A stretch of DNA of 38,329 bases from a virus. Shown piece after piece: positions 1,161 through 29,669 of this stretch. The translations under genes and the position numbers were made by a program. Position 1 is the stretch's first letter; the number at the start of each line of letters is the position of its first letter. Below the pieces are notes generated by a model that had not been told where the DNA came from, searched no databases, and was given only the letters and a program-made list of their open reading frames with translations. Location of the stretch: UHGV virus genome UHGV-1488451. The stretch is one strand, 5' to 3'.

Positions 1161-1535
1161 ATGAGACACAAAGACTGGGTAGAAAACCTTATTGGCCCCG
1201 ACTCCATGCGCACAGCAGCAGCCAAACTTGGCCTATCCCCCGGCGCAGTGTCCCAGCAGATTAGCCGTGGAAGTTTGAAGCCAGACATGGTGATCGCGCT
1301 TTGCCGCGCTTATGGGCGGTCACCGATTGATGGGCTTGTAGAGACCGGGTTTCTTGAGCGGTTCGAGGCGGGCGCAGCTAGCCCTGCTTCGGCGCTTAGG
1401 GAGGCGACGAATCAGCAGATTCTTGGTGAGATTATGCGGCGTTCCGATGCTGATGCGGTGCGGCTATTTAGGGCTGAGGATGAGGATGTGGCGGTGTCGT
1501 CGCAGGTGAGGGCGGATGGTCCTTACAGTGATTGA
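1161..1535 (+). CDS. Immunity repressor-like HTH DNA-binding protein
   Basis: 124 aa with the HTH-like segment MRTAAAKLGLSPGAVSQQISRGSLKPDMVIALCRAYG. It is divergent from the early array and upstream of the xis/int module. A possible TTGCAT-18-TACGCT promoter would make the mRNA leaderless, which is speculative. Confidence 0.65.
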   Translation: MRHKDWVENLIGPDSMRTAAAKLGLSPGAVSQQISRGSLKPDMVIALCRAYGRSPIDGLVETGFLERFEAGAASPASALREATNQQILGEIMRRSDADAVRLFRAEDEDVAVSSQVRADGPYSD

Positions 1536-1577: not shown

Positions 1578-1606
1578 TTGTTAATTGCAGAGTGGCGCTG
1601 TAATAT
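1578..1606 (+). promoter_or_regulatory. Near-consensus promoter TTGTTA-17 nt-TAATAT upstream of the moron-like cassette
   Basis: ttgtta lies at 1578-1583, a 17-nt spacer follows, and taatat lies at 1601-1606. The element sits in a locally AT-rich patch after the repressor stop. Confidence 0.5.
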
Positions 1607-1664
1607 AAATCTTGTAAGGCAAACAAGCCTCACGCCCACCTCAAACCCGAAAGGACCAAGACCA

Positions 1665-2000
1665 ATGACCACCATCACCCTCAACAACCTCGACTGGAAC
1701 ATCGCCCCCGCTGAATGGGGCATCGCATACGGCGAAATGGCAAGCCTCCCCACAGAAGAATCCACCCACAACGGCCCACAGTTCATTGTCGATTTCGATC
1801 TTGACGGCACCCGCAAAGCACGCCTCGCAGTAGACCCAACCATTGCTGGAATGAGCCGCGAAAAGGGCATGGCATTCAGCGACGACACCAACGATTGGCC
1901 AGTACTCGATGCACTGTTTGGGCGCGAACAATGGCAGCAATGGCTTGCTGACAAGACCGAGGAAATGCGCGCCCTAGACTCCGAAGACCTCGACGACTAA
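1665..2000 (+). CDS. Hypothetical acidic protein (111 aa), lysogeny-region cargo
   Basis: ATG at 1665 is preceded by aaaggaccaagacca (SD AAAGGA). The track ORF at 1578 extends upstream over the promoter. I recognise no family. Confidence 0.65.
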   Translation: MTTITLNNLDWNIAPAEWGIAYGEMASLPTEESTHNGPQFIVDFDLDGTRKARLAVDPTIAGMSREKGMAFSDDTNDWPVLDALFGREQWQQWLADKTEEMRALDSEDLDD

Positions 2001-2014
2001 CCACCATGCAAACC

Positions 2015-2034
2015 CCGGGGGCTTCGGCCCCTGG
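2015..2034 (+). terminator. Stable hairpin with UUCG tetraloop after the 111-aa ORF (no clear U-tract)
   Basis: ccgggggc-ttcg-gcccctgg forms an 8-bp stem including one G-U pair. It is followed by attaagg, so terminator function is doubtful. Confidence 0.35.
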
Positions 2035-2049
2035 ATTAAGGAACCAACA

Positions 2050-2346
2050 ATGAACACCCCCTACACCTTCAAGCACGTCATGTCAGGACGCTGGGAAGTC
2101 ATCCACAAAGGCAAAGCATTCGCAGTCATCGAGAGAAGCACCTGCTATTCCTCAAAAGACGGCATCATGGAATCAGCTGAATTGTGGGTAATCATTGACC
2201 CCGTAACTGAAATTCACCAGCAAGGGAAACTCCTGAACACCCTCTACCCGACTGAGTGGGGGCACCGCACCTACCGCGAGGCAGCAGCCACTGCCTGGGA
2301 AAACTACCAGAAATACGGCGCACCTGTTCCCATCGGACGAAACTAA
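2050..2346 (+). CDS. Hypothetical protein (98 aa), lysogeny-region cargo
   Basis: ORF with SD aaggaa 6 nt upstream of the ATG. I recognise no family. Confidence 0.65.
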   Translation: MNTPYTFKHVMSGRWEVIHKGKAFAVIERSTCYSSKDGIMESAELWVIIDPVTEIHQQGKLLNTLYPTEWGHRTYREAAATAWENYQKYGAPVPIGRN

Positions 2347-2353
2347 ACCAGAC

Positions 2354-2377
2354 CCCCGCCACCATGCGGGGTTTCAT
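2354..2377 (+). terminator. Hairpin plus T-run after the 98-aa ORF
   Basis: ccccgc (2354-2359) pairs with gcgggg (2366-2371) across the loop caccat, followed by tttcat. Confidence 0.5.
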
Positions 2378-2392
2378 GAAAAGGAAGCAATA

Positions 2393-2557
2393 ATGAACTG
2401 CGATATTCTTATCCTCGTTGTTATTATATCGAACTTAGCCATGCTGGCGGTATTATATCCGCGCGAAATGGATAGGGTACTCGATTCGTATATAGAAACT
2501 ATCCGCAATTGGATTCAGGCTATCTGCAAAATTTACAGGAAGGTGCACCGTGGATAA
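2393..2557 (+). CDS. Small AT-rich ORF encoding a 54-aa predicted single-pass membrane peptide
   Basis: It is not in the ORF track because it is under 60 aa. ATG 2393 follows aaaaggaagcaata (SD AAGGAAG). The product is MNCDILILVVIISNLAMLAVLYPREMDRVLDSYIETIRNWIQAICKIYRKVHRG, with a hydrophobic N-terminus and basic C-terminus. My hand count gives about 41 percent G+C (68/165), far below the flanks. Confidence 0.55.
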   Translation: MNCDILILVVIISNLAMLAVLYPREMDRVLDSYIETIRNWIQAICKIYRKVHRG

Positions 2558-2659
2558 TCAAACCCGAAACTCTGATGGTGTTTCTCGCCACAATCCCGCT
2601 TTGCCCACCAGTTCCCCGGCGGAGCGCGGGCGCATGGTTTATGATCAGGGGTGCCGCGT

Positions 2660-2893
2660 ATGACCACCCCGCTCGTCGAAATCACGCTACCCGGCGGCGG
2701 GGTGGCCTGGTCCATCACCGCAGTGCTTGACCACACCGGCCTATCACAATCATCATTCACCGCATACGTTGCACGCGGACAAGCCCCCGCCCCCACCCAT
2801 CATGTTGAGCGCACTAGGCTATGGGACGCTAAGGAAATCAAAGCCTGGTGGGCAACCCGCCCCGGAAAACCCGGCCGCCCCGCACGAACCTAA
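2660..2893 (+). CDS. xis: AlpA/excisionase-family HTH protein, likely Xis
   Basis: TGLSQSSFTAYVARGQAPAPTHHVERTRLWDAKEIKAWW matches the AlpA/Xis pattern. It lies immediately upstream of int on the same strand. ATG 2660 is preferred over the track GTG at 2651. Confidence 0.65.
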   Translation: MTTPLVEITLPGGGVAWSITAVLDHTGLSQSSFTAYVARGQAPAPTHHVERTRLWDAKEIKAWWATRPGKPGRPART

Positions 2894-2896
2894 CCC

Positions 2897-2926
2897 AGCC
2901 CCCACCCCGCACGGTGGGGGCTTTCC
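2897..2926 (+). terminator. Hairpin (10-bp stem) plus TTTCC after xis-like gene
   Basis: agcccccacc (2897-2906) pairs with ggtgggggct (2913-2922). A second hairpin, tccgcat/atgcgga, lies at 2924-2946. Confidence 0.5.
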
Positions 2927-3010
2927 GCATGACAAAACAATGCGGACACAAAACCCCCAATAATTAAATAAAAACCACATCTGACCTGCAACAATGCAAG
3001 GACAAAAACA

Positions 3011-4135
3011 ATGGCATCAATCAAACGATATGACACCGCCAAAGGAACAAAATGGCGCGTCCAATACCGCACCCCAGACGGCAAAAGCCGCACCAAAACC
3101 GGATTCCGCACCAAAAGCGAAGCCGAAAGATGGGTGGCCACACACACCACCTCCATCATCAATGGCACCTGGGTTGACCCCAACGCAGGCAACATAACCA
3201 TCCAGGCCCTCGGCACACGATGGATGGAAACCCGCACCCACCTGAAACCCTCAACAGCACGCGTCGAAGCCCTCGACTACAAAAACCACGTCCTCCCACA
3301 CTGGGGGCACCGGCGCATCAAAACTATCAAACCGTCGGAAGTGCAAGCCTGGGTGTCAGCCAGCGCCCAATCACCCTCAACCACCAGGCACCACCATGCG
3401 ATCTTGTCGAAGATTCTAGACATGGCCGTCCTCGACAACCTCATACCCGCGAACCCGGCTAAAAGCGTCACCCTGCCCCGCAAGAACAACCCAACAAAGG
3501 TGTACCTCACCATCAGCCAATTGAAGCGCCTAGCGGACGAGGCAACGGTTCGGGGTGAGCTGATCTGGCTGTTGGGAACCACTGGCCTTAGGTGGGGTGA
3601 GGCCGCTGGCTTGCAGGCGCAAGACTTGGACCCGCTGAACGGGCGCATCAGGGTGGCGAGGAACGCAGTAACGGTAGGGGGCGAGGTGGTTGTCGGAACC
3701 CCGAAAACTCATGAGCGGCGCACAGTGGCTTGCCCTGGGCATGTGATGGGGATGCTTGAAGATGCGGCACGTGGTAAGCCGCGCACCGGGTGGTTGTGGG
3801 AGTCGCCTGCGGGCGGGCCTATGCGGCTTCCGGGGAAGGGTTCTTTTTTTCATTCGGCGTTGGGGCGCGTGCGCGCCGAAGACCCGTCGTTTCCTTCGTT
3901 GACTATTCATGGTCTTAGGCATGTGGCAGCCGGACTTTTAGTTTCGGCGGGGGCGAATGTGAAGGTGGTGCAAAAGCAGCTTGGACACAAGTCTGCGGCT
4001 ATGACGTTGGATGTGTATGCGGAGTTGTTTGACGATGACTTGGATGCGGTGCGTGGGGCGTTGGATGCTTTGGTGGGTTCTTTGGGGAATGTCGTCAAAT
4101 TGTCGTCAAATCGGGGTTTTGGTGACGCGGTTTAG
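3011..4135 (+). CDS. int: Tyrosine integrase (phage integrase family)
   Basis: 374 aa with an N-terminal SAM-like/arm-binding region (KWRVQYRTPDGKSRTKTGFRTKSEAERW). The C-terminal catalytic motifs are LRWGEA...HGLRHVAAGLL...LGHKSAAMTLDVYAELF. Confidence 0.95.
   Translation: MASIKRYDTAKGTKWRVQYRTPDGKSRTKTGFRTKSEAERWVATHTTSIINGTWVDPNAGNITIQALGTRWMETRTHLKPSTARVEALDYKNHVLPHWGHRRIKTIKPSEVQAWVSASAQSPSTTRHHHAILSKILDMAVLDNLIPANPAKSVTLPRKNNPTKVYLTISQLKRLADEATVRGELIWLLGTTGLRWGEAAGLQAQDLDPLNGRIRVARNAVTVGGEVVVGTPKTHERRTVACPGHVMGMLEDAARGKPRTGWLWESPAGGPMRLPGKGSFFHSALGRVRAEDPSFPSLTIHGLRHVAAGLLVSAGANVKVVQKQLGHKSAAMTLDVYAELFDDDLDAVRGALDALVGSLGNVVKLSSNRGFGDAV
4088..4110 (+). repeat. Arm-type repeat copy 1: aatgtcgtcaaattgtcgtcaaa (two tandem TGTCGTCAAA motifs), inside the int 3' end
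   Basis: Exact 23-bp match to 4298-4320. Confidence 0.85.
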
Positions 4136-4156
4136 GGGTTTGACCTTGGGTTTTTT

Positions 4157-4184
4157 TGGTGCCCCCAGTCGGACTCGAACCGAC
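4157..4184 (-). other. tRNA 3'-end fragment (T-arm + acceptor 3' strand + ACCA), presumed attP core; not a functional tRNA gene
   Basis: The minus strand reads gtcgg-ttcgagt-ccgac tgggggc acca. No matching 5' acceptor strand (gccccca) occurs about 70 nt upstream. Confidence 0.75.
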
Positions 4185-4297
4185 TTTCTGGGTTTTGTCC
4201 ATACCGTTGTTTACCTGCATGTTTGCTGGTCAAGTGCGGTTTTTGCCGTGTAGCAACCCTGTTGAATTTGCGTGTATTTACGTGTGTTTTAGTGTGA

Positions 4298-4320
4298 AAT
4301 GTCGTCAAATTGTCGTCAAA
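4298..4320 (+). repeat. Arm-type repeat copy 2: aatgtcgtcaaattgtcgtcaaa
   Basis: Exact 23-bp match to 4088-4110, on the other side of the tRNA-like core. Confidence 0.85.
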
Positions 4321-4340
4321 AATGACCCCACCCCGAAACG

Positions 4341-4383
4341 CAAAAAACGCCCCCGCAACCACCAACAACGGTGGCGCGGGGGC
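4341..4383 (-). terminator. Strong rho-independent terminator ending the late/lysis operon
   Basis: The minus strand reads gcccccgc..ccacc..ggtgg..gcgggggc followed by gttttttgcg. The stems are at 4349-4356 and 4376-4383. Confidence 0.8.
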
Positions 4384-4399
4384 GCATCTTCACAAGGGG

Positions 4400-4912
4400 C
4401 TAAACCTCATCACGAGCCTGCTTAGCAAGCTCCCGAATGTCCGCCTGAATTATCTGCGGAATCACCGGCAAATCATCCGGACGCTTACCCGGCCACTTCC
4501 TCGACGCCCATTCCTCACGAGCCGCGATATGCTTCACAGCCGTGCGGTGACGTTGGTTGATGTCCGTCATGCGGGTGGTCAGGTCGGTGATCTGGGTGTC
4601 TTGATTGGTTAGCTTGGTGTGCATGTCTGTGACTTGCTGTGCGAGCCGGTCATGTTGCGCGGTCACGGTGTTCAGGGTGGTTTCCATCACCCCGACGGTG
4701 GCGGTTAGGTTGTTCACAATTTGTTGTGACTCGTCCAAGACTAGGCGTCTTTCCTCCACCTTCCCGTCAGCGTGCCCTTTGCGGTGCGCTGTCCACGCGG
4801 CAAGAATCACACTCACAGCGGTGGCGATGCCACCCACCCAGCCAACGATCTCACTGATGCTCACGGCCTCAGCCACCTGCGGTGGCGGCATTTGTGCCGC
4901 CAACCACCACAT
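4400..4912 (-). CDS. Membrane-anchored coiled-coil protein, last gene of the lysis cassette (function unknown)
   Basis: 170 aa with an N-terminal TM segment (IVGWVGGIATAVSVILAAW) and a long heptad-like T/Q-rich helix. It follows the holin. Confidence 0.7.
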   Translation of the reverse strand: MWWLAAQMPPPQVAEAVSISEIVGWVGGIATAVSVILAAWTAHRKGHADGKVEERRLVLDESQQIVNNLTATVGVMETTLNTVTAQHDRLAQQVTDMHTKLTNQDTQITDLTTRMTDINQRHRTAVKHIAAREEWASRKWPGKRPDDLPVIPQIIQADIRELAKQARDEV

Positions 4913-5264: not shown

Positions 5265-6743
5265 TTATTTTCCCTTCATGGTTTGGATTTGCTGTTGAAT
5301 GTTGGCGATGTCGCGCCGGGCGGCGGCGACACCATCCACGAGGGTGAGGTTTTCACCCTTCGAGTTCTGGCCCAACTGCGGCCAGGGGCCAAGCTGACCG
5401 CTGATGTATTCCACTTGTTGGATTAGTCGGTCAAGCTTTTTGTTGGTTTCCTGCGCCGCGACTTTGGCGTCGTTCAGCGCGGCGACTTGCTCATGTCCGA
5501 ATAGGGACACTGGTCCTCCTTTGATTTGGATGTTTGGGTTTGCGGGTGCGGTCGAGTAGGCGTAGCCCTTCGGCAGTATCAGCGAGGCCAGCTGGTCAAG
5601 GCTGATCCAGTAGCCGTATGGGCTGAACCATGAATCCGCTATCCACACGGCACGCCCCTGGTCACCGTCTCGATATCCCATTGCGGCAATGTAGTGGTAC
5701 ACCACGCCCCCGCCATAGGCTGGGGAGACGGAGCCGTACACGCCGCGCGGGTAGTTCGACGGTGGAGCAACGATGTTGCAGATGACACCATGACCAGCTT
5801 TGACTGAGGTTTTGATGTCGTTCCACAGGCGTTCCTGCTGGTCCGCCGTTGGTGGGTCATTAGGCATCTCTACTGACTGGTATTCAGCCCCTGGGATGTG
5901 TTTGTTCAGCACCTTCGGGAAGAACCCAATCCAGTCTGTGCCGTTGACTGTGGTGCCCAGCTCCACAGCGAAATCGCCTTCCGGCTTGAGAACACCGGTG
6001 GCGGCGAACACCACAGTCTGGGTGGATGCGGGCCCGCAATTGTAGTAGGTGTCCTGTACCACGGCCTCACGGCTGTAGGGGATTTCTACTTCTTCACCAG
6101 CCTGGTTGACCAGGGTTTCACCCGCGCCGCCGCCGGTTGAACCTTCAGGAAGCAGTGACTCCCCCAAGGTCAGGCAGAAGTCGAAGCGGCGTTGCCGGTC
6201 GTCGATTCCGTTGGTTCCTCCATTGATCGCGCGGGTTGCGGCTTTGAATCCTTCGTACCGCTGCCAGCCCTCTAGGTTCGGGTCTGCTGCCTGGTCAGCA
6301 AATTCATTGAGCAGTGGCCGAGCCACCACCCAGTACCAAGCAGCAGCCATGAATCCCCACTTCGGGGTGGCCACCAAATCCGGGTCATTCACAAACAGGT
6401 TCGGGTCGCTGGTGATTCCACGATCATGGCACCATCGACCGAACGACCCGTAGTTGTTCCGTCCCGTGAGCTGTATGGGGCCGCGACCATGGAAACGTGC
6501 ACCATCACCAGGGTAGACGTTGCCGAGATCGCCACGGCCCTCATAGTTGCTGGTGAAGTAGTCATACCCGCCAAGTTCCTGCATGAATTGCAGGCCCACG
6601 GACTCATGTCCGATCTGCGCGCACCACATTGCTGCGCGCGCCACGGTCGTGATGTCCGCGAACTTCATGGCTTCATTCATGGGTTGCACAAACGCCGAAT
6701 CGACGTTGGAACCCATTGCTCGGTTAAGTGTTCCTAGGTCCAT
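5265..6743 (-). CDS. Multidomain endolysin: N-terminal GH19 (chitinase-like) muramidase plus papain/C39-like cysteine peptidase plus C-terminal tail
   Basis: GH19 motifs are QIGHESVGL and FHGRGPIQLTGRNNY. The peptidase motifs are YYNCGPAS and a later YHYIAAMGY His region. ATG 6743 follows aaaggag; the track GTG at 6749 is too close to the SD. Confidence 0.88.
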   Translation of the reverse strand: MDLGTLNRAMGSNVDSAFVQPMNEAMKFADITTVARAAMWCAQIGHESVGLQFMQELGGYDYFTSNYEGRGDLGNVYPGDGARFHGRGPIQLTGRNNYGSFGRWCHDRGITSDPNLFVNDPDLVATPKWGFMAAAWYWVVARPLLNEFADQAADPNLEGWQRYEGFKAATRAINGGTNGIDDRQRRFDFCLTLGESLLPEGSTGGGAGETLVNQAGEEVEIPYSREAVVQDTYYNCGPASTQTVVFAATGVLKPEGDFAVELGTTVNGTDWIGFFPKVLNKHIPGAEYQSVEMPNDPPTADQQERLWNDIKTSVKAGHGVICNIVAPPSNYPRGVYGSVSPAYGGGVVYHYIAAMGYRDGDQGRAVWIADSWFSPYGYWISLDQLASLILPKGYAYSTAPANPNIQIKGGPVSLFGHEQVAALNDAKVAAQETNKKLDRLIQQVEYISGQLGPWPQLGQNSKGENLTLVDGVAAARRDIANIQQQIQTMKGK

Positions 6744-6772: not shown

Positions 6773-9760
6773 CTACCCGTATTCGATGGGGAGGATGTAG
6801 TTTCCTTCACGACGCACCCATGCGATGGTTTCGCGCAGTACATCGGGGTCCGGTGCGTTGTCCCACGGGTTGTTCCATTCGGATTCACTACCCAGCTCAC
6901 CGGTGAATGTGTCAGTGGTGAGCCAGATTTGCCCAACGTTCGATACGCTGGCACGCTTGAGTACTTGTTTGGCCTGCTCAACATCGTTTACGTTGTGTAC
7001 CGCGTGCCAGAACCTCAGCGGGTTATGCCCTCTGTAGTGCCCAGGACAAATAGTCTCGTCGTCAATGTAGCGTTGCGCGGATTGTTCGAAAGCCATGAGC
7101 GTATCCGCCGCACCCAGCATGCCCTCAACAGTGTTGCCGCCCGGGTTCGCTGTGATGTAGAAGGCGCTTCCGTACTTTTTGCGGAGTTCCTGGTACAGCG
7201 TTACATAGCCTTGCACTTTGTTTGCCTGGTCGCCCCAGCCATTGACAGCCTCATCAAGGAACACACCGTGAATACGGTGACGCCCGTACCAGTCTATGAA
7301 CTGGTCGATCTCCTTGATGATCTCGGAGTGGCTGCGACCGCCCCACTGGGTGAGCACGTAGGCGATGTTGACCATGCCGAGCGCCGCAGTGGTGGTTAGC
7401 GTCAACTCGTAGTCGTTCTCTTTCTTCGTGCCCACACCACTATGAGGGTTGGCGATGAACGGCCCTGCGATCTGCGGATTGTGAAGGTAGTTGGCGGTGA
7501 CGTCGCGCGCGTGCTCAACCGCCTCCCAATATTTAGGCCAAGAATAGGTGACCGGCGCAAGCCTGCGTGCCCCACGCGTCCACAACTGGAATGGGTGAAT
7601 ATGCAAACCAGGGGTAGGCCCCTCGCGGGTTTCCAACGCTTTCAACAAAGGCGAAGCCTCACTAGCCGCCGGAGCAGGCGCGGGCGCGGGAGGAAGTTTC
7701 TTCAACCGCTCATCAACAACCTCACCAGCCAAAACCCGAACACGCTCCTCATCAGGCTTATCAAGAAGCTTCTTCCACTCCTCAATCGTGATGATCATAT
7801 CCGGGCGCGCCGGGTTGAAATTCCCATTGAAGATGAAATCCTTCTTCACAGTGCCTTCCTGGGCGTTGTTACCAATGATGGTGTTGCCGCCAACCTGCTC
7901 CTTCTTCGTTCCCTTGCGCAACACAATCTTCACCATGTGCGCGCAGTCAGCCTTGGGGTTGTCCTGCGCGTAGCTGTTGCCAATGACGGTGCAGCCGATG
8001 GGGTCTTCCAGTGCGACGGCCGCCCAGTCTTTAGGGCCGTCTGCGGGTGGGCGTAGTTGGTTTTCAAGGCCCACGTTCCAGATGTCGTTGCCTTGGATTT
8101 TTGTGCCGTGCCCGGAGCAGGCGATGCCGTGGTTCCAGGTTTCGCCGATGGTGTTGGCCATGACCACGCTGTACCCGCCCACGCTGATTCCGTTGTCCTT
8201 GGACACGGGGAGCATGTTGCCGGTGATGTTCGTGCGGTAGCACTTGATGGTGAAGCCGATAGGCTCGAAAGCGATTGACTGGTTCTCGGCCATGACCACA
8301 CTGTTCCCAGACACGAGGGTGTCTTTCGGTGCGCCCTGAATCAATGTCTCAGGCCGCAAAGCCGGGTCGGTAGTATCACGCCCACCAATGCCCATGCCGC
8401 AGGATGCGCGGCGAATCTGGTTGCCAATGATCTGGTTGCGGTTCGACTCGTCTTTGATCATGATGCCGAACCCGGATGCACCCTCCTGCGCCGTGTTCTG
8501 CTTCAAACCGCTACCATCAGTCCAGCAGTTCAGAACCAGGGAATCGTTCGTTCCGTTGCCGGTTGGCTTCTCTTTCCGCACAAACCCCTGCAAAAGGAAC
8601 GCATTTGCGCCGGAGTTCATGACCCCGATCTGAACCATCTTCACGTAATCAGCGTTCGTGATCTGCAGCGCCGTGGCAGGCCGCTCACCCGTCACCCAGT
8701 CCATGTCGATAACAAACCCGGACATGTAGCCGCGCCGCAGATTGCCGCCACTGGTTGACTGCATGGCGTTCTTCCCGACGCCGCGTTTCATCTTCAACAC
8801 CGTGGCGTCACCCTGCCCCATCATGACCTTGCCGGAAAGCTTGTCGAGGTTAATCGTGTTCGACAACCCCCACTCACCAGCAGGCAACTGGATTACCTTC
8901 TTCGACGCGTCGTTAATGGCTGCCTGCAAAGCAGTGGTGATGTCAGTGCCCTCGGCTGGTTTGACGTTGATGACACCAGCATCACCTGCGGCTGTGACGA
9001 TTTCCTTGATCTGGGTTTCCACCAGCTTCGTAACAGCCTTGTTGACTTCCTCGGAGATCTTGTTTCCAACTGCCTGCTGGATAGCCTCAGGTGTGGGGGC
9101 CGCGCCACCGCCGCCTTGCGGGTGTTGCCGGAAGTATTCTTCCACGGCCTTGCCGATTTTCTCCGGGTCAACGCCTTCGCCTGCGGGGAGCTTCCCGATT
9201 TGCCTAGTGATCTCGTCACGCACCAGGCCGCTGAGGTCGTTCATTGCCTGCTGCACAGCGTCCTGGGAGGCTGCGCTTGCGGCTTGTTTCGCCTGGTTGA
9301 CGGCTTCGCGTGCTTCGTCTCGTGCGGCGATGGTGTCTTTCTTCACCTGCTCAACCGTGCTTGCCGCCTGCTGTGCTTGGGTGACGGCTTCTTCGGCTTT
9401 GCGTTTGCTTTCCGACGCGGCGGTGGCTGCCTGCTGCGCTTCACCCACGACAGCGGGCGGGTACTCTGTTTGCGCGCCGATCAGGTTGGCTAGGTTCGCC
9501 TCACCTGATTCAGGCAGTGTCACAGTCCACGAGGTTCCATGCACAGTGCCGCCTTCAAGCGTCACTGTGACAGGCCCGGGGAACATGTCAGGGCTGCGGA
9601 AAACCCCACCGGTGCCTTCCATGTGGATTCGCCGCAGTTCCCGCGTGACCACCGTTCCACCCTCGACACGTTCACCCGATGACTGCAGCACCACATAGCA
9701 GTCAGGGCCGTCAAAAGGTTGCTTGGTGATGCTCTTCAAATCACCAGTCAAAATAGTCAT
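6773..9760 (-). CDS. Tail fibre/spike with coiled coil, pectate-lyase-like beta-helix and C-terminal spherulin-4 (GH135-like) domain
   Basis: The central region (VIQLPAGEWGLSNTINL...MGQGDATVLKM... with repeated G-N-x-I/V turns) resembles a right-handed beta-helix. The C-terminal part (FIANPHSGVG...VNIAYVLTQWGGRS...IDWYGRHRIHGVFLDE) fits the Spherulation-specific family 4 pattern. Start ATG 9760 follows taggaaggtgcta; the track ATG at 9781 abuts a terminator T-run and lacks an SD. Confidence 0.8.
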   Translation of the reverse strand: MTILTGDLKSITKQPFDGPDCYVVLQSSGERVEGGTVVTRELRRIHMEGTGGVFRSPDMFPGPVTVTLEGGTVHGTSWTVTLPESGEANLANLIGAQTEYPPAVVGEAQQAATAASESKRKAEEAVTQAQQAASTVEQVKKDTIAARDEAREAVNQAKQAASAASQDAVQQAMNDLSGLVRDEITRQIGKLPAGEGVDPEKIGKAVEEYFRQHPQGGGGAAPTPEAIQQAVGNKISEEVNKAVTKLVETQIKEIVTAAGDAGVINVKPAEGTDITTALQAAINDASKKVIQLPAGEWGLSNTINLDKLSGKVMMGQGDATVLKMKRGVGKNAMQSTSGGNLRRGYMSGFVIDMDWVTGERPATALQITNADYVKMVQIGVMNSGANAFLLQGFVRKEKPTGNGTNDSLVLNCWTDGSGLKQNTAQEGASGFGIMIKDESNRNQIIGNQIRRASCGMGIGGRDTTDPALRPETLIQGAPKDTLVSGNSVVMAENQSIAFEPIGFTIKCYRTNITGNMLPVSKDNGISVGGYSVVMANTIGETWNHGIACSGHGTKIQGNDIWNVGLENQLRPPADGPKDWAAVALEDPIGCTVIGNSYAQDNPKADCAHMVKIVLRKGTKKEQVGGNTIIGNNAQEGTVKKDFIFNGNFNPARPDMIITIEEWKKLLDKPDEERVRVLAGEVVDERLKKLPPAPAPAPAASEASPLLKALETREGPTPGLHIHPFQLWTRGARRLAPVTYSWPKYWEAVEHARDVTANYLHNPQIAGPFIANPHSGVGTKKENDYELTLTTTAALGMVNIAYVLTQWGGRSHSEIIKEIDQFIDWYGRHRIHGVFLDEAVNGWGDQANKVQGYVTLYQELRKKYGSAFYITANPGGNTVEGMLGAADTLMAFEQSAQRYIDDETICPGHYRGHNPLRFWHAVHNVNDVEQAKQVLKRASVSNVGQIWLTTDTFTGELGSESEWNNPWDNAPDPDVLRETIAWVRREGNYILPIEYG

Positions 9761-9781
9761 TAGCACCTTCCTAAAGCGCAT

Positions 9782-9816
9782 AAAAACAAGGCACCCAACT
9801 TGATTAGTGAGTGCCT
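9782..9816 (-). terminator. Hairpin plus T-run between the minor tail genes and the fibre gene
   Basis: The minus strand reads aggcac-(16 nt)-gtgcct tgttttta. The stems are at 9789-9794 and 9811-9816. Confidence 0.55.
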
Positions 9817-9842
9817 AAAATAATGAGTAGAAACAATGCGGG

Positions 9843-10568
9843 CTAGCGCGTACGCCCCGTAGCCGTTCCTTTGCCGCCGTCAATCTCCCTATTCAGGTGC
9901 CACACCATCAAGTGGTTTCTGTCAGCACCACCGTAGAACTCACGAGACAAAGATATATTGTGCGTGATAACTACCTGTACCGTGTAGCCAACATCAGGCA
10001 CAGCCACCACGGTGGACAAGATGGAATGGTCCTTCTCACGCGACGTGATGTAGCCACGCTTGACGTGCCACATTTCGCCGGTGCGAGTTTTCACTTCGAT
10101 CTGCCATTCCACCACATGGGAAGATGCGATAGCGATAAGGCCAGACACGCTAATCATGGCATCGATACGCCACACGCCTTTATCCATGAGTCGGATAGCA
10201 TGGGGAATGCGCTCAAACTCGACGCCGCGCGAACCCACAAGCATTTCGTCAAAAGGAAAAACACCATGAATACTCTTCTCCCCGCTGGACATGAACAGCG
10301 TGCCGGTCTCCTCCAGAGGGGATTTGAGTTCTTCGATGCGGCTTTGCAGCGCAGCCTGTCCATCGCGGTAGACTTGCGAAGCGCTAACAATTGGCTTGAA
10401 AATCGCCCCGCCGATGCCGCGTAGGGCGTCGCCGATGCCTTTGATGAGGCCGTTAAAACCCTGGGCTAGCAGGTTGCCCATGTCGCCGCCTGCGTGTTCC
10501 AGGGCTTTGCCCATTGTTTGTGGGGAGCCGTCCCATTTGGGTTGGTACTTGTCTGGCGAAATGCCCAT
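9843..10568 (-). CDS. Minor tail/baseplate-region protein (unknown function)
   Basis: 241-aa ORF in the tail module with a G-rich N-terminus and a beta-rich C-terminal half. I recognise no family. Confidence 0.7.
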   Translation of the reverse strand: MGISPDKYQPKWDGSPQTMGKALEHAGGDMGNLLAQGFNGLIKGIGDALRGIGGAIFKPIVSASQVYRDGQAALQSRIEELKSPLEETGTLFMSSGEKSIHGVFPFDEMLVGSRGVEFERIPHAIRLMDKGVWRIDAMISVSGLIAIASSHVVEWQIEVKTRTGEMWHVKRGYITSREKDHSILSTVVAVPDVGYTVQVVITHNISLSREFYGGADRNHLMVWHLNREIDGGKGTATGRTR

Positions 10569-10570
10569 GA

Positions 10571-11146
10571 CTATTCCTCGCTACCCTTTTCGTCACTGTT
10601 ATTTTTTTGCAGTTCCGCCAACAACAAAGCCCGCTGCTTCGCCGTCAACTTCGACACATCAATCGGAGCCGCAGCATCCTCCACAACCTGCACGGCACCT
10701 TGCCGCTCCTCCAAAGCACCAATCCAACGCCCATCCTCATTCGGGGAACCAACACCACCCAAAGCATCAAACTTGATCTGCGGCCCAACATGCACAGTCC
10801 ACGACCAAACCCCCTCAGGCAAAGTGCCCTTCATCAACCCAGTACGCGGGTCAAGCGACAACCCCGGAGGCAACACCGGACACCACACCGCAGCCAACGA
10901 ACCACCAGGAACCAACTCATCAACCTCACGCGAATCATCCCACCCACGCGAATACTCCACCGTAGTTGGCTCCTGATCATGCAACTTCACCCCCACAAGA
11001 TCAAACAAAAACCTGCACAAATCATTAATCAGATCAATGTCCATGTTGAACCCCAGGGGCTTAATCAACAAAGGCGCATACGGGTGCATGCCCTCAGGCA
11101 CCGGATAAGGCCACATGAAATCCAACTGCTTATTACCAGTAGACAC
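10571..11146 (-). CDS. Minor tail protein with putative Ig-like (He_PIG-type) segment
   Basis: 191 aa. The LPPGLSLDPRTGLMKGTLP motif is typical of putative Ig domains. The GTG start has the SD agaaggg. Confidence 0.7.
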   Translation of the reverse strand: MSTGNKQLDFMWPYPVPEGMHPYAPLLIKPLGFNMDIDLINDLCRFLFDLVGVKLHDQEPTTVEYSRGWDDSREVDELVPGGSLAAVWCPVLPPGLSLDPRTGLMKGTLPEGVWSWTVHVGPQIKFDALGGVGSPNEDGRWIGALEERQGAVQVVEDAAAPIDVSKLTAKQRALLLAELQKNNSDEKGSEE

Positions 11147-11158
11147 AACAAAACCCTT

Positions 11159-12757
11159 CTAAGGAATCAAAGTCTTAATACGATCAGTCGCCGCCGCCAA
11201 AGTCTTCAACGACCGCTCCAACGACCGTGCCGAAGACTCACGCAAACGCGGGTCACCCAACCCAATATCAACATCATCACCACCACGACCAGGCTTAATC
11301 GTCACCGACTGAACAAACGTCGCAAAGTTCACACCACGCGAACGAAACACCGCTTGATCACCCACACGATAATCACGCCCAAACAAATACGGGGAACCGT
11401 CACCAGCCTCAAAAGCCACCGACACTTTCCCCTGCGTCTCCTGCAAAGCGGTAAACGCTTGCTGCAGCGTCGACAAGCTGAAACCCTCACCAGGCTTCAC
11501 CAAACCCCGGTACCGGTATTTACCTAGCGCGTCCTCACGTGACCACGCCCGGAACTCCGACCAAGCGAACAGTTTGTCCTTCAAAGCGTTAGCTTGCAAC
11601 GTGCCCAGGAACGCGCCACCAGCAGCAGACAACGCGGCAAACGGGGGGAACAACGCCCCAATCGCCGCGCCGATACCCTGCCACAACGCCTGCGAACCAG
11701 CCGCAATGAGACTGTTCACAATCTGCGGGGACTTGCCCCCCACGATCACGGCACTATCAGTGGCCTTGCGTAGAACAACCTTCGACGACACGCCCCGCAT
11801 GTGGTCACCATCCCACACGCACCAGGCTTTAGGGTTGTCACCATTGAATGCGGTGTCGTCGATAACAATGGCCTTTGACACATTGTCACCAGCGATTTTC
11901 TCCTTCACGCCCCTGATGACGTCGCCAACCCCGCCGGTGGACGACGCAAAGTTCCTGGCCTTCACGTCAATCACAATGGTGGGGTTCTTTAACGTGGCAT
12001 GGTTCCTGAACGGCTGCGGGTCACCGGGTAGCCAGAGTTCAGCGACCAGTTGCAGCCCGGCCGCATCCAACGTTGCTTTGAACATGTCCCCAGCAATATT
12101 GAATCGACTGTCAAGCACAGTCCATTCGGTGTTTTCCGACTCGTGCACAGGGTTCACAATCAACGGCCACCACTCAGGCCGCAGGTCACGCCATGTTGAC
12201 GCTGACCATACATCCCAGTTCTTCAGCAACTGCGGCTGAAAATCCTTAGCCAGGTTGCGGAACAGGTAGTTTTTGATAACCCTGAGCGAATCACCAGCCT
12301 GCACATCCGACCATTTCAGCTGAGCCACAATCGGCGCGCCTGGTGATGCCCACAACGGCAAGTGATTAAACAGCTCCCACAAGCCTTCACCATGCACTGT
12401 GAACACGTCACCGTCAGAATCTGAGTTGATCTCCACCTCAACGACACGGTATGCGAAACGATAGTGCTTCGTTTCAACAACCACCCAAAGGGATTCATTC
12501 AACACACGGTTCAGGTCAGGGGTGTTGGTGTCCTCATCCGCGAACATCAACGTCCGCACCGCCGGGTGAGTGCCAGGCAAATCAATCTGCATCTTGCCCG
12601 GCGCGTTGCACTCGTCGCCAAACTGCGTGCCCTCGAGAAACCCAGACAGCGACACCAAAGGCTCCATGTTCTTATCGAACAGCCACACAGTGCGGCCACC
12701 GGAATCATGCACGCTTTTCTGCGACTTGCCCCAAAGCTCCCATGCGAAAGCCACCAA
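11159..12757 (-). CDS. Tail-tip protein (Tal / prophage-tail family, position-based)
   Basis: 532 aa, immediately after the Dit-like gene. The size and position are typical of a siphovirus Tal N-terminal structural module. Confidence 0.7.
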   Translation of the reverse strand: MVAFAWELWGKSQKSVHDSGGRTVWLFDKNMEPLVSLSGFLEGTQFGDECNAPGKMQIDLPGTHPAVRTLMFADEDTNTPDLNRVLNESLWVVVETKHYRFAYRVVEVEINSDSDGDVFTVHGEGLWELFNHLPLWASPGAPIVAQLKWSDVQAGDSLRVIKNYLFRNLAKDFQPQLLKNWDVWSASTWRDLRPEWWPLIVNPVHESENTEWTVLDSRFNIAGDMFKATLDAAGLQLVAELWLPGDPQPFRNHATLKNPTIVIDVKARNFASSTGGVGDVIRGVKEKIAGDNVSKAIVIDDTAFNGDNPKAWCVWDGDHMRGVSSKVVLRKATDSAVIVGGKSPQIVNSLIAAGSQALWQGIGAAIGALFPPFAALSAAGGAFLGTLQANALKDKLFAWSEFRAWSREDALGKYRYRGLVKPGEGFSLSTLQQAFTALQETQGKVSVAFEAGDGSPYLFGRDYRVGDQAVFRSRGVNFATFVQSVTIKPGRGGDDVDIGLGDPRLRESSARSLERSLKTLAAATDRIKTLIP

Positions 12758-12758
12758 A

Positions 12759-13544
12759 TCACCTCCACATCGACGTGAACAATGGGGTCACCATGCCGGT
12801 AGCCCCACCACCAAAAACCCACGTGGCCCTACCACCAGGGGGGATAGGCTGCGGAAACACACGCCCCCGCAACCTACGCCACAAATCCGGGGCGGGCTCA
12901 CCACCAACCGTGATCATTGAGGCTTTAGCCGGGTCAGTGTCCAACACCGCCACCCTGTTACCAGTGTGGGGCAATTCCACCTGCCCCACACCAGGGGCGG
13001 TCACCGTTGTAACCCCGTTGCCCTGCCACCTGACGCGCGGCCACAAAGGCAAATCACCAGGGTTATGAATCACAACCTCCCCAGTGTGGCGGGTAGTTTC
13101 ACCACGCCAACACCCCTCATAGCAGACAACAGGCACATCAACCGTGAACGACCGCAAACCCAACGTGGCGGGAGAAACCCCAGGGTCAGGCACACGGTCT
13201 TTCACCAACAACCTGCACGACAATGCTGTCTTACCGGGCACAACAACCCGCAAAACAGACTCATCAAACGGAGTCACATTCCGCACAAACAACCGCCACG
13301 ACTCCGCAAGCGGAGCATCCTCAGCATGGAAACCCAGTTTCAGGGTGCCCTCCATCTTGTCGATGCTCCACCCAATCGGCGTGGCACCCACCTGTGTTGT
13401 CGTTGCCCTGGTCTTCACGTCAACCTTCGCAGACAATTCAGGTGGCCCCATCAACCACATGCCCCTACGGCCATGCGCATACCGGGTGAGTGCCCACGTC
13501 ACCCCCGCACTATCGTCAAGTGAAACGTTGTACAGGGATTCCAT
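12759..13544 (-). CDS. Distal tail protein (Dit-like)
   Basis: About 261 aa, directly downstream of the tape measure. ATG 13544 has the SD aaggag 9 nt upstream. Confidence 0.7.
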   Translation of the reverse strand: MESLYNVSLDDSAGVTWALTRYAHGRRGMWLMGPPELSAKVDVKTRATTTQVGATPIGWSIDKMEGTLKLGFHAEDAPLAESWRLFVRNVTPFDESVLRVVVPGKTALSCRLLVKDRVPDPGVSPATLGLRSFTVDVPVVCYEGCWRGETTRHTGEVVIHNPGDLPLWPRVRWQGNGVTTVTAPGVGQVELPHTGNRVAVLDTDPAKASMITVGGEPAPDLWRRLRGRVFPQPIPPGGRATWVFGGGATGMVTPLFTSMWR

Positions 13545-13560
13545 GAACACTCACTCCTTG

Positions 13561-16500
13561 CTATGTGAGAACAGTGGGCGCGCCACCAACATGACGCTCA
13601 CCCTTGATCTTTTTCAGGTCTTTGGTGTTCACCTCGACCTTGCCCTCCACAGCCTCCACACGCTGCCGCAGGACTTCCTCACCATCCACGTTCACCACCA
13701 GGGTTAGCTGACCACCATCGCCCTTATCGGCGATTTGTTTCAGCACACCCCACTGGTCGTTAGTGAGAATCGCTTCCGGCTTGCCGGACAGGTTCACCGC
13801 CGCACCCTCATGAGGCAGCACACCGCCCTGGTCATACAGGCGTGTACCACCACGGGCACGCTGACCAGCCCAACCAGCGAGGTTCACCAACCCGTGTGCC
13901 GCGTCGATGTCCTCCATCAGGCTAGCCAAACCACCAAACCCATCATCACCACCATTAAAAGCGGCACCGAGTTCACCCCACGCGGCACCAGCATCAGCGG
14001 CCTTGTTGACAAGGAACTTGGCGCGCTCCTCACCAACAACACCAGCTGTTGCGCCGTACCCGTAGTCGCCACCGTTGAAGGCGGTCGTGAACTCCTCGGC
14101 CACGTTCGCGGCCAGGCTGTTGCGCACCATGCGGCCGAAATTACCGGTGGCGTTCACCAGTGTTTTCGCGTGCGTGTCGCCGATCAGCTGGCCGAGCCCG
14201 CCGAAGCCGTCATCACCGCCGTGGAACGCTGTTGTGAGTTCTTCACGTGCAGCATCCACGGGGTTGATCTGCGGCCCTGTTGGGTTAATGTCCTGCGGGT
14301 TTTCCGGTTTTGCGTCGGCAACTGCGGCTGCGGCACCATCAACCCCGGAAGCAGCGGTGTTAGAATCGCCTGCCTGTTTGGCCTGCTCTTCTTCCTTCTT
14401 CTTCTGGTCGCGGGTGAACCAATCCGGTACAGGCGCAAGCTTGTCCGGTGGGGTTGTGGCCAGCTTCTTGATCAGGCCGTTTCCGCCGCCGATGAACTCG
14501 AAGAACGCGTCTTGTGCAAGTGCGTCCGGGGACTTGTTGCCAAGGGTTTTCCAGAACACTTCGTTGGCGATGCCAGCGCCGTAGGCCCCGGCGTCTTGCC
14601 AGCGTTTTACTTCGTTCTGGGCGTTGACGATTCCTTGGTGTGCGGCTAGTGCCGCGACTACTGCGGGGTGGTCTTCTTCGAGGTGGGTTGCGTCTGCGCC
14701 GAGGTATTCGCCGGTGTTGATGACGTGCATGAGTGCGTCTGCGGCTTGTTTCCAGGCTGCGGGGCCTTTGTTGCCGAGTTCGACGAGGGCTGGGATTGCG
14801 TTTCGGAGGTCTCCGAAGTTGCGTTCCAGCATGTCCCACTGTTCAGCGGTTAGGACAGCCTCTGGCTTTCCTGTGTGGTTCCAGTAGGTGCCGAACCCTC
14901 CTGGGGTGGGTTTGAGCCAGCCGCCGGAATCGTAGCCATGTCCATGACCCCACATTGTGGTCAAATCAGTGCCGTACCTGCTCTTGTAGTAGCGGAGCGC
15001 GGCGTTCATATTGGCCCACGGGTCACGCCTATCGTTCGGCAATTCGGGGTCACGGTTGGCTGCGAATGTGCCGGGGATGATCTGCAGCAAGCCAACGCCC
15101 GCACTGTCGCCAGTTCCGTTGACGTCGACAATCTGCTGTGCAATACCCGGGTTGCCACCAGACTCAGACTGAATCTGGGCCAGCATGGCGTTGACCTGCG
15201 CCGGGTCATCAGCATTAAAGCCTTGACGACGCATCGCGGCCATTGCCATTTCGCGCCACGACTCGGCATTACCAGCCACACCAGCGGCACCGGAGAAGGT
15301 GCCCACCTTCGACTTGATAAAGTCCCAAGCCTTGTCAGCGAGGGTTTTAGCGATAGCTCCGGGGAGCTTGCCGAAGTCGCCGTGCTGCTCCTTGCCTGGG
15401 AAGTCGCCGATCTTATTGATCGCCGCGTCCCACAGGCCCTTGACCATTGCTCCGAGGTTGAAGCCGCCACCGCCACCAGCGCCACCTGAAATGAACTCCC
15501 CAAGGAACTCCTTCAAAGTGTAGGTGTGGTTGAACAGGCTGTTATCGGAGCCACGTGCCGCACCGCCGATCTGCACGCCGTGATCGCCCGCCGATTCCAA
15601 GTTAACCCCGTCGATAGTGCCCGCCATGTGGCCGTTCTCGCCGCCGCCTTTGCCGGACAGCACGCCAATGGTCACGCGGCCAGACAAGCCGGGGACGAAC
15701 CCGAAGTTACCAAAGTTACTTTCGGTGTTGAAGATACGTCCTGCGCGCAGCGAACCGCCGTTCAGGAACTGCGTAATGCCTGACCACAGGCCCGAGCAAT
15801 CCCAGCTGGGGTTGCCGGTGCCCCCATACTGATAGGGCTTGCCGTGCTCAGATTTGAGTTCATTGAACAAGGCCGCAATGCGCTCAGTCAGGTGATCGCG
15901 CTGATCAGTGCCGCCATTAGGGAACACGCCGCCCTTAGCGAACGCAAGGGCACGGTACACGCCGCCGCGCGCGAACGCGGCACCCTCACCCAGCATCTTC
16001 TTGACGCGGCTCACGCCACCACCAATGGCGGCTTTGTTCAGCGCATCAACAGCAGGCTTACCGCCCATAGCCTTAGTGACCTCTGGGCGCATGATCGCCT
16101 CACCGCCGGACAAGCCAAGCAGCCCGCCAGTGGGGCTGTAGAAATGGTGAATATCCTTACCAGGACTGTAACCAGGCAGGACACCACCGGTTGCGAAATG
16201 ATGCTCTGGGAGTTCACCAAGGCCAACCAGCTTGGCCACCGTGTTCCAGGCTTTCCTGATGCCACCGTTGTAGACCGTGTTGACCACGAACTCAACAGGT
16301 TTTTTCGTCTTGTCCTTGATGCCGTCCCAGATGCGGCCGATATTATCGACGGTCTGACTGAACCAGTCTTTGACTTTCGTCAACCCGTCTTTCAGCCCGT
16401 TGAACACCGGGTGCACCACATTATCAGCAACCCAGCGTATGCCGTTGCCGAGGGCTTCCCACGTTGGTTTGATGTAGCCGTTCCAGATGCTGGAGAAGAA

Positions 16501-20076: not shown

Positions 20077-20502
20077 TCAGATTTCAAGACTCTTCAAATA
20101 CGCAAGTGCCTCCTCCTGGGTGTGATCACCCAGGGAACCAATGCGTGAAGAATTAGCGTTCTTAATCTCCGACCACGGATAGGCAGGTGTTTCTTCGGCC
20201 GGCATTTTTGCTTTGCTGTTTCCGTTCACGCGGGCCAGCAAAACCTGTGTTTCCCACGTCGCCCACAACAGCCGCCACAACAGGGAGTCGGTAATGCCGT
20301 AGGGCTTGCCGTCGGTTTGATGCCAACGCGCCGGGGAATCCTTAGGCAGGTTCTCAACAAGGACGCGGAGTTTCCGCAAGGTGATCTCACCCCGCCAGAA
20401 CTCCGCCATAACATCCCTGTGGTACGCCTGCTCTAGTGACGCTTCGAGGACTTCCGCGCCACCGCACGACGCTGCAAGCGATTCAACGGTGAAGATTTTC
20501 CC
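20077..20502 (-). CDS. Tail assembly chaperone extension (GT-like), reached by -1 frameshift from the upstream ORF
   Basis: The downstream ORF is in the -1 frame relative to the G-like ORF. That frame is open from the slippery site through 20077, which I checked codon by codon. Confidence 0.75.
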   Translation of the reverse strand, partial: GKIFTVESLAASCGGAEVLEASLEQAYHRDVMAEFWRGEITLRKLRVLVENLPKDSPARWHQTDGKPYGITDSLLWRLLWATWETQVLLARVNGNSKAKMPAEETPAYPWSEIKNANSSRIGSLGDHTQEEALAYLKSLEI

Positions 20503-20795: not shown

Positions 20796-20883
20796 GGCAG
20801 ACCCCTTCCAAAGTCTCACAAGCAGGCCAAACAACAAAAGGTTGGTGGGGGCGGGCCTGCCAAACACTCCCCCACCACCACCT

Positions 20884-20914: not shown

Positions 20915-20947
20915 CAAGAAACCGGGGATTCGAACAACAATCAGACG

Positions 20948-29649: not shown

Positions 29650-29669
29650 GGGGTTTTGGGGGTTGATAT

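Follow-up and report, generated by a model that had tools for sequence, protein, structure and literature searches.

The phage genome and its integrase gene

The 38,329-nt window analyzed here, UHGV virus genome UHGV-1488451, is an essentially complete genome (~38 kb, circular) of a temperate siphovirus-type phage. On the plus strand, which codes for it, the integrase gene is A+C-rich in its 5′ part and G+T-rich in its 3′ part, and its reading frame runs intact across the switch. We find that this switch, like a similar one in the repressor gene, is very probably not the joint of two recombined alleles but the point at which a positional, strand-specific substitution bias of the phage changes sign.

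The same integrase, residue for residue, is present on independent human-oral-metagenome assemblies of 38.2–38.3 kb from several samples, and these assemblies are circularly permuted relative to one another. Genes on the plus strand are confined to the lysogeny module, made up of a repressor-like helix-turn-helix (HTH) gene, three small open reading frames (ORFs), an excisionase-like gene, and the integrase. The minus strand carries, in order, genes for a YqaJ exonuclease, RecT, SSB, a replication initiator, RusA, HNH, the small and large terminase subunits (terS and terL), portal, and capsid, followed by the tail genes, tape measure, tail fibre, endolysin, and holin. The plus-strand genes central to the analysis are as follows.

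1161–1535, plus strand: repressor-like HTH gene, 124 aa (PHROG HTH/repressor families, E = 8.5e-22)
2660–2893, plus strand: excisionase-like gene (PHROG matches)
3011–4135, plus strand: tyrosine integrase gene, 374 aa, ORF intact (ORF list, Pfam)

The integrase has the R-K-H-R-H-Y catalytic residues of a tyrosine recombinase together with N-terminal arm-binding and core-binding domains. Its Pfam domains are Arm-DNA-bind_4, Phage_int_SAM_3, Phage_int_M, and Phage_integrase (184–339), and R194, K232, H300, R303, H326, and Y336 fall in invariant columns of a 24-sequence alignment. The 374-aa frame and all catalytic residues are thus undisturbed, as an earlier note on this DNA had stated. The nearest named relatives are Corynebacterium prophage integrases (52–60%), and the nearest deposited phage by integrase is Corynebacterium phage IME1320_01 (46%). 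A DNA search of the integrase region against deposited phages gave no match.

Compositional polarity reverses inside two genes

The reversal in the integrase lies between two long domains of opposite polarity, and the reversal in the repressor opens a third. Domains were delimited by hidden Markov model (HMM) segmentation.

1261–1601: G+T-rich domain on the plus strand, covering the 3′ part of the repressor gene and the downstream spacer; it ends abruptly at ~1601–1620, where the next 60 nt hold only 11/60 G+T
1602–3520: A+C-rich domain on the plus strand (HMM keto fraction 0.29–0.44), covering orf111, orf98, orf54, the 2660–2893 gene, and the first ~170 integrase codons
3460–3600: reversal zone in the integrase, with a local minimum of cumulative G+T minus A+C at 3546 and a fitted midpoint at codon ~170
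3521–4320: G+T-rich domain on the plus strand, covering the 3′ half of the integrase and all of the phage attachment site (attP); strongest at 4021–4140

All skew counts of the earlier note were reproduced. Per 60 nt, G+T amounts to 20 at 3421–3480, 19 at 3481–3540, 40 at 3541–3600, and 47 at 4021–4080; in the repressor, 22/60 at 1201–1260 gives way to 35–43/60 in the lines from 1261. We quantified the switches by GT3, the fraction of G+T at third codon positions. Integrase GT3 changes from 0.22 (3011–3538) to 0.75 (3539–4135), with the best change point at 3520–3547 (log-likelihood ratio [LLR] 56, 0/2000 permutations as high). Repressor GT3 changes from 0.23 in the first ~32 codons to 0.81 after them, with the change point at nt 1256 (LLR 17.3, 0/2000 permutations). 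The earlier note had named a nonsignificant third-position difference as grounds for giving up its observation; in both genes the difference is highly significant.

The integrase switch is mostly synonymous, since codon position 2 is nearly unchanged across it. Four-fold sites change from A.26 C.56 G.10 T.08 in the 5′ block to A.10 C.15 G.47 T.28 in the 3′ half. An accompanying amino acid shift was not significant: window-specific replacements toward A+C codons ran at 14 vs 5 in the N-terminal half, with no significant difference from the C-terminal half by Fisher's test. The amino acid composition of the integrase domains contributes little to the switch, because position 2 barely changes and homologues from other genera are flat at third positions.

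Within the integrase, the transition appears graded. GT3 is about 0.1 where the gene begins and about 0.85 where it ends. A logistic curve with its midpoint at codon 170 and a width of ~45 codons improves on a step by 4.2 log-likelihood units, and a linear ramp (0.07 to 0.93) does as well as the step. Across 16 relatives, a graded fit is preferred in 10, and in the other 6 a step does just as well. We agree with the earlier note that such a switch cannot be an inversion. Its suggestion of a mutational process with sharp spatial limits holds in part: the evidence favors a spatially limited process, but inside the integrase the limits are not demonstrably sharp.

Several antisense ORFs of 115–130 aa overlap the integrase on the minus strand (2890–3922), and the two that were searched (2890–3237 and 3277–3648) had no family matches. 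These look like by-products of the skew, because the A-poor strand has few stop codons.

Both halves of the integrase have the same relatives

A mosaic gene offers one explanation for the switches. Here, alleles under opposite strand bias would have supplied the two parts of each gene, integrase and repressor alike, and homologous recombination would have joined them, as the earlier note had proposed. Temperate phages are indeed mosaic, and skew in the early region of this genome differs by gene. Comparison of positions 5400–6700 with the relative L007 gives a clear case of module replacement, in which most of the endolysin gene is only ~50% identical between flanks that are 91–99% identical. 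Furthermore, alleles 93–95% identical in the L066–L092 group differ by up to 41 vs 2 keto-directed changes; these are clustered, strand-coordinated third-position transitions that are shuffled as blocks.

However, the integrase halves, searched separately as the earlier note had advised, show no sign of different histories. IME1320_01 is the nearest deposited phage for both (44.9% and 46.4%), followed for both by the Gordonia phages Schmidt, Finkle, and Gsput1. Among 120 homologues from a search of 5.8 billion proteins, the same 96% protein is the best match of both halves, and all others are 47–66% identical to either half. The window and two relatives, L006 and L007, are 92–97% identical in DNA and share the switch; their identity is uniform on both sides of nt 3530 (0.87–0.99 in 150-nt intervals), and substitutions are similarly dense in the two halves. 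The marks of a mosaic gene, differing nearest relatives and a step in divergence at the junction, were therefore not found. By the earlier note's own standard, shared relatives with no sign of incongruence speak against the recombination reading.

Intragenic breakpoints are also rare in the wider family. Among 114 family pairs at least 70% identical, 5 have a strong intragenic identity breakpoint, and 4 of these 5 involve the 3′ end of one sequence, near codon 312, which is the only repeated case. In addition, the graded fit beats the step, and polarity is the same in 59 of 60 lineages with change points that range from codon 43 to codon 260. Such shared polarity is not what independent recombination events would produce. 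Even if true, a mosaic origin would leave the opposite skews of the two alleles unexplained. We conclude that fine-scale recombination moves boundaries without creating the polarity. On these sequence comparisons, a splice of two alleles in the integrase and repressor is not supported, and we regard the mosaic explanation as unlikely.

The gradient is shared by a family of phages

Integrase genes related to that of the window carry the same polarity. We compared 79 loci of this integrase family from IMG/VR, which group into 60 lineages at 97% nucleotide identity. In every one of the 79 loci, the side 5′ of the best change point has the lower GT3, and some lineages reach 0.99 in the 3′ half. 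Between the first and last thirds of the gene, GT3 increases in 59 of the 60 lineage representatives (mean +0.285). The corresponding mean for 22 homologous integrases from Mycobacterium, Rhodococcus, Glutamicibacter, Microbacterium, and other actinobacterial genera is −0.008 (Mann–Whitney p = 1e-10). The pattern is thus shared by a family of Corynebacterium-type phages and is clade-specific. The earlier note had placed the switch at the junction of the N-terminal and catalytic domains; this holds in some lineages but not generally, given the spread of change points.

Averaged over the family, GT3 forms a smooth ramp from about 0.3 to 0.8, and four-fold sites behave likewise. Mean plus-strand G+T declines slowly over the 3–4 kb upstream to 0.40 at the integrase start and reaches 0.63–0.66 at its end. 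It stays near 0.6 for the ~200 nt of attP, falls abruptly to 0.42–0.44, being lowest immediately beyond the fall, and is back at 0.5 within ~1 kb. The integrase always lies beside attP, so that all family members share the gradient from 5′ A+C to 3′ G+T.

An artefact was rejected as the source of the pattern: the integrase is present on independent assemblies, and the pattern also occurs in prophages of isolate and complete genomes. Reads converted in a bisulfite-like manner were likewise rejected, because neither C nor G is absent and A and T change too.

In the window, the attP region adjoins and partly overlaps the integrase gene.

4028–4042: inverted copy of the arm-type repeat (inverted repeat search)
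4083–4110, plus strand: attP arm-type repeat, P side, TGTCGTCAAA x2; one of two copies of a 28-nt direct repeat; overlaps the integrase 3′ end
4158–4200, minus strand: probable attP core, resembling a tRNA 3′ end (T-arm, acceptor stem, CCA; read from sequence)
4293–4320, plus strand: attP arm-type repeat, P′ side; its final base is the final base of the G+T-rich domain
4343–4385, minus strand: putative intrinsic terminator (G+C hairpin, then a T-run) for the late/lysis operon

The arm-type repeats flank the tRNA-3′-like sequence, an arrangement in which 4158–4200 would probably serve as the core. ARAGORN found no complete tRNA at this candidate core, and a consensus terminator scan did not list the 4343–4385 hairpin. 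In the sub-family of L073, a complete tRNA-Arg(TCT) gene (11092–11165) directly follows the integrase on the same strand, whereas the window has only a tRNA 3′ fragment on the opposite strand.

Polarity domains are anchored on fixed landmarks

Across the entire window, the plus strand is a patchwork of G+T-rich and A+C-rich domains, each 0.15–2 kb long. Several domain edges coincide with landmarks of the phage genome. Beyond the P′ arm repeat, G+T falls from 40/60 to 15/60 across 4320/4321, a cliff that matches the end of the outer attP arm repeat to the base. The A+C-rich domain at 1602–3520 is strongest at 1602–1780 and 2730–3520, with gene GT3 of 0.26–0.27. The cumulative skew (G+T minus A+C) has its global maximum at the end of the 1261–1601 domain (~1601–1620); its plot has a broad maximum on the far side of the circle from 29320. 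The global minimum is exactly at 29320, at the HNH/terS junction and abutting the terS start codon, with the strongest skews of the genome on either side.

28924–29319, minus strand: small terminase gene, terS (PHROG terminase small subunit)
29321–31228: extreme domain, 1.9 kb, 78% G+T on the plus strand; lying between the terS start and the replication initiator gene's 3′ end
31239–32366, minus strand: replication initiation protein gene (phrog_2447, E = 1e-37); directly adjoins the extreme domain
31923–32010: iteron-like tandem repeat, 22 nt x 4, ATTCGGATTCATTTCGCGTTCG, inside the replication initiator gene (Tandem Repeats Finder)

Position 29320 is probably the cos region, judging from the HNH-terS-terL order and the usual place of cos in such layouts. 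Several relatives' contigs end at or near this point. In an unrelated phage, L214, GT3 drops to 0.11–0.24 toward the end of the early region and jumps to 0.80 at terS; the jump is weaker in L129 and IME1320_01.

The strands that run 5′ to 3′ away from 29320 are G+T-rich. Three sites of the lysogeny region are of the opposite type: ~1000, in the divergent promoter/operator region; ~1610; and 4320, at the outer edge of attP. Each is G+T-rich on its left and A+C-rich on its right, so the strands running 5′ to 3′ toward the site are G+T-rich, and the extremes adjoin the site. The repressor lies between ~1000 and ~1610 and the integrase between ~1610 and 4320. Thus, the skew must cross zero inside each gene.

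This architecture differs from a two-replichore genome, which would have exactly two changes of polarity. Besides the dominant V at 29320, the cumulative skew has at least a dozen more reversals of prominence ≥40. The minimum lies at the terS/HNH junction, and the initiator gene with its iteron-like repeats lies 1.9–2.7 kb away. The repeat at 31923–32010 is a candidate iteron-type origin, and a local reversal from G+T to A+C lies right beside it, at ~32122.

Short patches of strong skew, 140–290 nt long, also occur inside single genes (14604–14810, 17958–18155, 18984–19273, and 4542–4683). They sit in the tape measure gene and in a 170-aa gene beside the holin and are smaller versions of the integrase case. 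The patches at 14604–14810 and 4542–4683 have a polarity opposite to their surroundings.

Opposite domains are mirror images that point to one substitution process

The strongest bias lies in the extreme domain, which contains three minus-strand genes.

29365–29649, minus strand: HNH gene
29741–30310, minus strand: gene for a 189-aa protein
30575–31108, minus strand: RusA gene (Pfam)

All three have A or C at 98–99% of synonymous sites. In the RusA and 189-aa genes, GT3 is 0.05–0.06 and third positions are A.30 C.64 G.045 T.01; four-fold sites are A.26 C.73 G.01 T.00, and two-fold codons end in 79 C vs 2 T for pyrimidines and 62 A vs 2 G for purines. At codon positions 1 and 2 of these two genes, G+T is only 0.26–0.36, an apparent shift in amino acid composition. 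Other genes on the same coding strand reach 88–93% G/T at synonymous sites. The tail gene at 10571–11146, for example, has a GT3 of 0.88 and third positions of A.04 C.08 G.52 T.36.

The two regimes complement each other, with T the scarcest base in the first and A in the second, and intergenic DNA carries the same skew. This points to one strand-specific substitution process acting on either strand, and not to codon selection. The synonymous imbalance between A and G (13–64 fold) exceeds that between C and T (4.5–7 fold), and third-position G+C stays at 0.63–0.74.

Selection on RNA or DNA properties, and not mutation, is one alternative. It might favor unstructured, C-rich and G-poor A+C mRNAs for Rho loading, insulating and silencing prophage genes; alternatively, strongly skewed DNA cannot hold palindromic restriction sites. 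Transcripts that enter the prophage from either end would be A+C-rich (3521–4158 leftward, 4321–4541 rightward), and the pattern is clade-specific, both in line with selection. However, the regimes are exact mirror images, as expected of one mutational process on either strand, and Rho loading does not need the loss of U. A state in which 98–99% of synonymous and intergenic positions conform would require implausibly strong selection per site. We consider this explanation very improbable.

Equally improbable, in our view, is enzymatic hypermutation of single-stranded phage DNA by a deaminase of the host or of a competitor, in the manner of APOBEC or kataegis. It would account for strand-coordinated patches of 140–2000 nt with sharp edges that affect the phage alone, and the absence of bias among recent substitutions is compatible with episodic bursts. 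However, no 5′-neighbor motif is seen (converted fractions are 0.55–0.65 for C→T and 0.77–0.95 for A→G), and the 3′-neighbor effect occurs in neutral genes as well. Two activities would be needed, because adenine is lost no less strongly than cytosine and G+C is preserved. Reading frames and function are kept at near-saturation, which calls for long-term filtering and not bursts.

Nor do alleles of the extreme block that are 98% identical show directionality in their differences. An IMG/VR search for the RusA allele gave no match, and the closest RusA relatives (61–65%) are too distant to polarize changes in the block.

Assemblies of close relatives (L003, L126, L127, and L131) tend to break in or near the extreme block: one ends at ~29328 and one inside RusA. 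One 34.8-kb viral contig seems to be without roughly 27860–31389, by coordinate arithmetic and not by alignment. Such breaks could reflect true cos ends, strain variation, or a coverage problem.

The bias belongs to the phage and probably does not follow transcription

Host genes that flank lysogens are flat (GT3 0.40–0.56), and the change at the prophage border is abrupt. This strongly suggests that the process belongs to the phage. The prophage ends themselves are 0.3% diverged vs 1.9–2.2% in the host flank. Among the L206–L213 Corynebacterium lysogens, the integrase end (9000–11200) differs by 0–0.3% and the chromosome (11241–21101) by 1.9–2.2%, which indicates recent horizontal spread into the same attachment site.

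Transcription-linked asymmetry is another candidate explanation. In such a scheme, the RNA-sequence strand would be A+C-rich near promoters, antisense transcription would dominate in the 3′ half of the integrase, and the reversal would mark the balance of the two convergent activities; the antisense transcripts would come from read-through of a tRNA gene in lysogens or of the late operon. Some boundaries agree with it. The A+C-rich block begins where the plus-strand operon does, in L118 as well as in the window (1602), and no more than ~20 nt separate the end of the late-gene regime from the putative late terminator. In L211, a minus-strand gene among plus-strand genes has an A+C-rich coding strand like its neighbors.

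However, several comparisons contradict it. Transcribed host genes beside the prophage are flat, and late genes have the opposite polarity on the same coding strand; since GT3 of minus-strand genes spans 0.05 to 0.88, no single coding-strand polarity holds. After attP, the plus strand is A+C-rich in both the window and L052, although the next gene is on the minus strand in the former and on the plus strand in the latter. Across the family, coding GT3 of adjacent genes is correlated on the same strand (r = 0.56) but not positively on opposite strands (r = −0.12). The polarity is also the reverse of the classical bias from deamination of the non-template strand. We therefore view transcription-linked asymmetry as unlikely, if a shade less so than a mosaic gene.

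Two more specific sources were rejected. Read-through from the tRNA gene in lysogens does not fit, because the tRNA is convergent with the integrase in the window and co-directional in L073, with the same gradient in both. The direction of host replication fails because a complete genome with the integrase head-on predicts the opposite sign for the 3′ half, and host genes vary by only about ±0.05. A fixed tract of ~1.9 kb from the operon start is not supported either, as the A+C block upstream of the integrase varies from 0.2 to 2 kb among lineages.

A positional substitution pressure with a possible origin in phage DNA replication

We favor the explanation that the switches are zero-crossings of a positional, phage-intrinsic, strand-asymmetric substitution pressure caused by replication or recombination, and we give this statement as a whole a probability of roughly 55%. 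Its descriptive part, a positional and strand-specific bias intrinsic to the phage in place of a recombination joint, is highly probable. The attribution to replication or recombination is tentative, and on its own we consider it somewhat doubtful.

Under this explanation, a single process would favor G and T on one strand, leaving the partner strand rich in A and C. A→G and C→T would be its main changes, along with some C/G gain, and the strand it targets would differ by domain. The domains would record which strand is preferentially single-stranded or resynthesized while episomal phage DNA replicates and recombines. Synthesis or end-processing might begin at cos, and where proteins occupy the DNA, as in the Int-attP complex or at the operators, forks might arrest or repair might act on one strand. 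The phage depends on its RecT, YqaJ exonuclease, SSB, and RusA, and MutS/L mismatch repair is not known from its host clade among the Actinobacteria. The G+T-rich domain is unbroken across the attP core to the outer arm, which hints, weakly, that the process acts on contiguous attP and not on the integrated prophage.

A number of observations weigh against this explanation. Skew in the early region varies gene by gene, with GT3 of 0.22, 0.51, 0.31, and 0.22 within 900 nt, and the pattern is neither purely sense-linked nor purely position-linked. The clustered transitions of the L066–L092 group segregate as short haplotype blocks; recombination thus shuffles the pattern, and history contributes besides position. 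Substitutions polarized among the three close relatives run toward neutrality (151 vs 102, p = 0.0025), and the bias may be episodic, past, or acting at transmission rather than at mutation. Bidirectional replication from cos fits the large-scale V but not the A+C-rich block at 1602–3520. Cos and attP are opposite in polarity, so they cannot both be sites of one break-and-resection process, and no single textbook process fits all landmarks. The implied asymmetry (A/G 13–64, C/T 4.5–7) is, to our knowledge, far above that of any known replication system, and A→G contributes more to it than C→T, the reverse of what deamination produces in vertebrate mitochondrial DNA (mtDNA).

An undescribed strand-specific drive in Corynebacterium-type temperate phages, anchored on cos and Int-bound attP, is a further possibility that we regard as unlikely. 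Single-strand-annealing recombination by RecT and YqaJ would always supply one and the same strand at each side of a fixed end. NucS, the mismatch endonuclease of Actinobacteria, is reported to recognize only G/T, G/G, and T/T mismatches. It would reject heteroduplexes with G or T on the incoming strand, so that A and C alleles would be transmitted preferentially. Such a drive would explain the keto/amino axis, the restriction to the phage, and the nearly symmetric spectrum of recent mutations. It would also explain the polarity at cos under standard 5′→3′ resection, and the extra gain of C at four-fold sites (A.26, C.73 vs.43/.57 expected from transitions alone). By itself, however, this version leaves unexplained the opposite polarity at attP and the flat prophages of other NucS-bearing genera.

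Comparison with known systems

The phenomenon is a strand compositional asymmetry that stands out by its size, by reversing inside genes, and by being anchored on cos and attP. Like replication strand asymmetry, in which the leading strand is G+T-rich and the cumulative plot V-shaped, it follows the G+T versus A+C axis, has one deep V (minimum at 29320), and tracks the strand and not the codon. Unlike it, the bias reaches 98–99% of synonymous sites instead of the usual few per cent, reverses many times at a scale of 0.15–2 kb, several times within genes, and is absent from the adjacent host DNA. Its deepest point is the probable packaging site and not the iteron-bearing initiator gene.

Vertebrate mtDNA, in which the asymmetry grades with how long a strand stays single during strand-displacement replication, offers another parallel. 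It shares near-saturated synonymous bias, A+C-rich and G-poor sense strands, gradation by position, and A→G and C→T changes on one strand. However, the sign in the phage reverses repeatedly, the element is a double-stranded DNA siphovirus-type phage, and the A↔G imbalance is the larger one, whereas C→T dominates in mtDNA.

Kataegis, in which strand-coordinated mutations cluster at resected breaks or through break-induced replication, and the APOBEC gradients of retroviruses, whose bounds are priming sites, resemble the phage in their kilobase and sub-kilobase single-strand tracts, in a point at which polarity switches, and in being strongest beside foci. The phage differs in that it has no deaminase motif and that its signal is an equilibrium-like composition filtered by selection, not a cluster made in one generation. 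With cos and attP opposite in polarity, one resection rule cannot fit both.

Mosaicism of temperate phages, produced by relaxed homologous recombination with Rad52-like recombinases, is similar in that RecT, YqaJ, SSB, and RusA are encoded and that modules are swapped and haplotype blocks shuffled. Yet the integrase reversal lacks the marks of a mosaic joint and has one polarity family-wide.

Searches of full-text literature yielded no account of the phenomenon; all they gave was the general observation that the skews of prophages are unlike those of their hosts (PhiSpy paper, PMC3439882).

One further feature of the window lies outside these comparisons. An 18-nt tandem repeat spans the window ends (38017–38282 and 1–77, about 15 + 4 copies) within a minus-strand gene and thus encodes a 6-residue protein repeat. 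Offset BLAST matches suggest that its copy number varies among relatives.

Significance of the skew domains

Skew domains have consequences for sequence analysis. They create long spurious antisense ORFs by which gene callers could be misled, they imitate signals of recombination or horizontal transfer in composition-based tools, and they coincide with the places where assemblies of relatives break. In this pattern, mutation bias would also override codon preference with a clarity that is unusual in nature. If the domains record strand-specific DNA metabolism, then their edges would provide a map, from sequence only, of the packaging site, the limits of attP, and the protein-bound control regions in uncultured phages.

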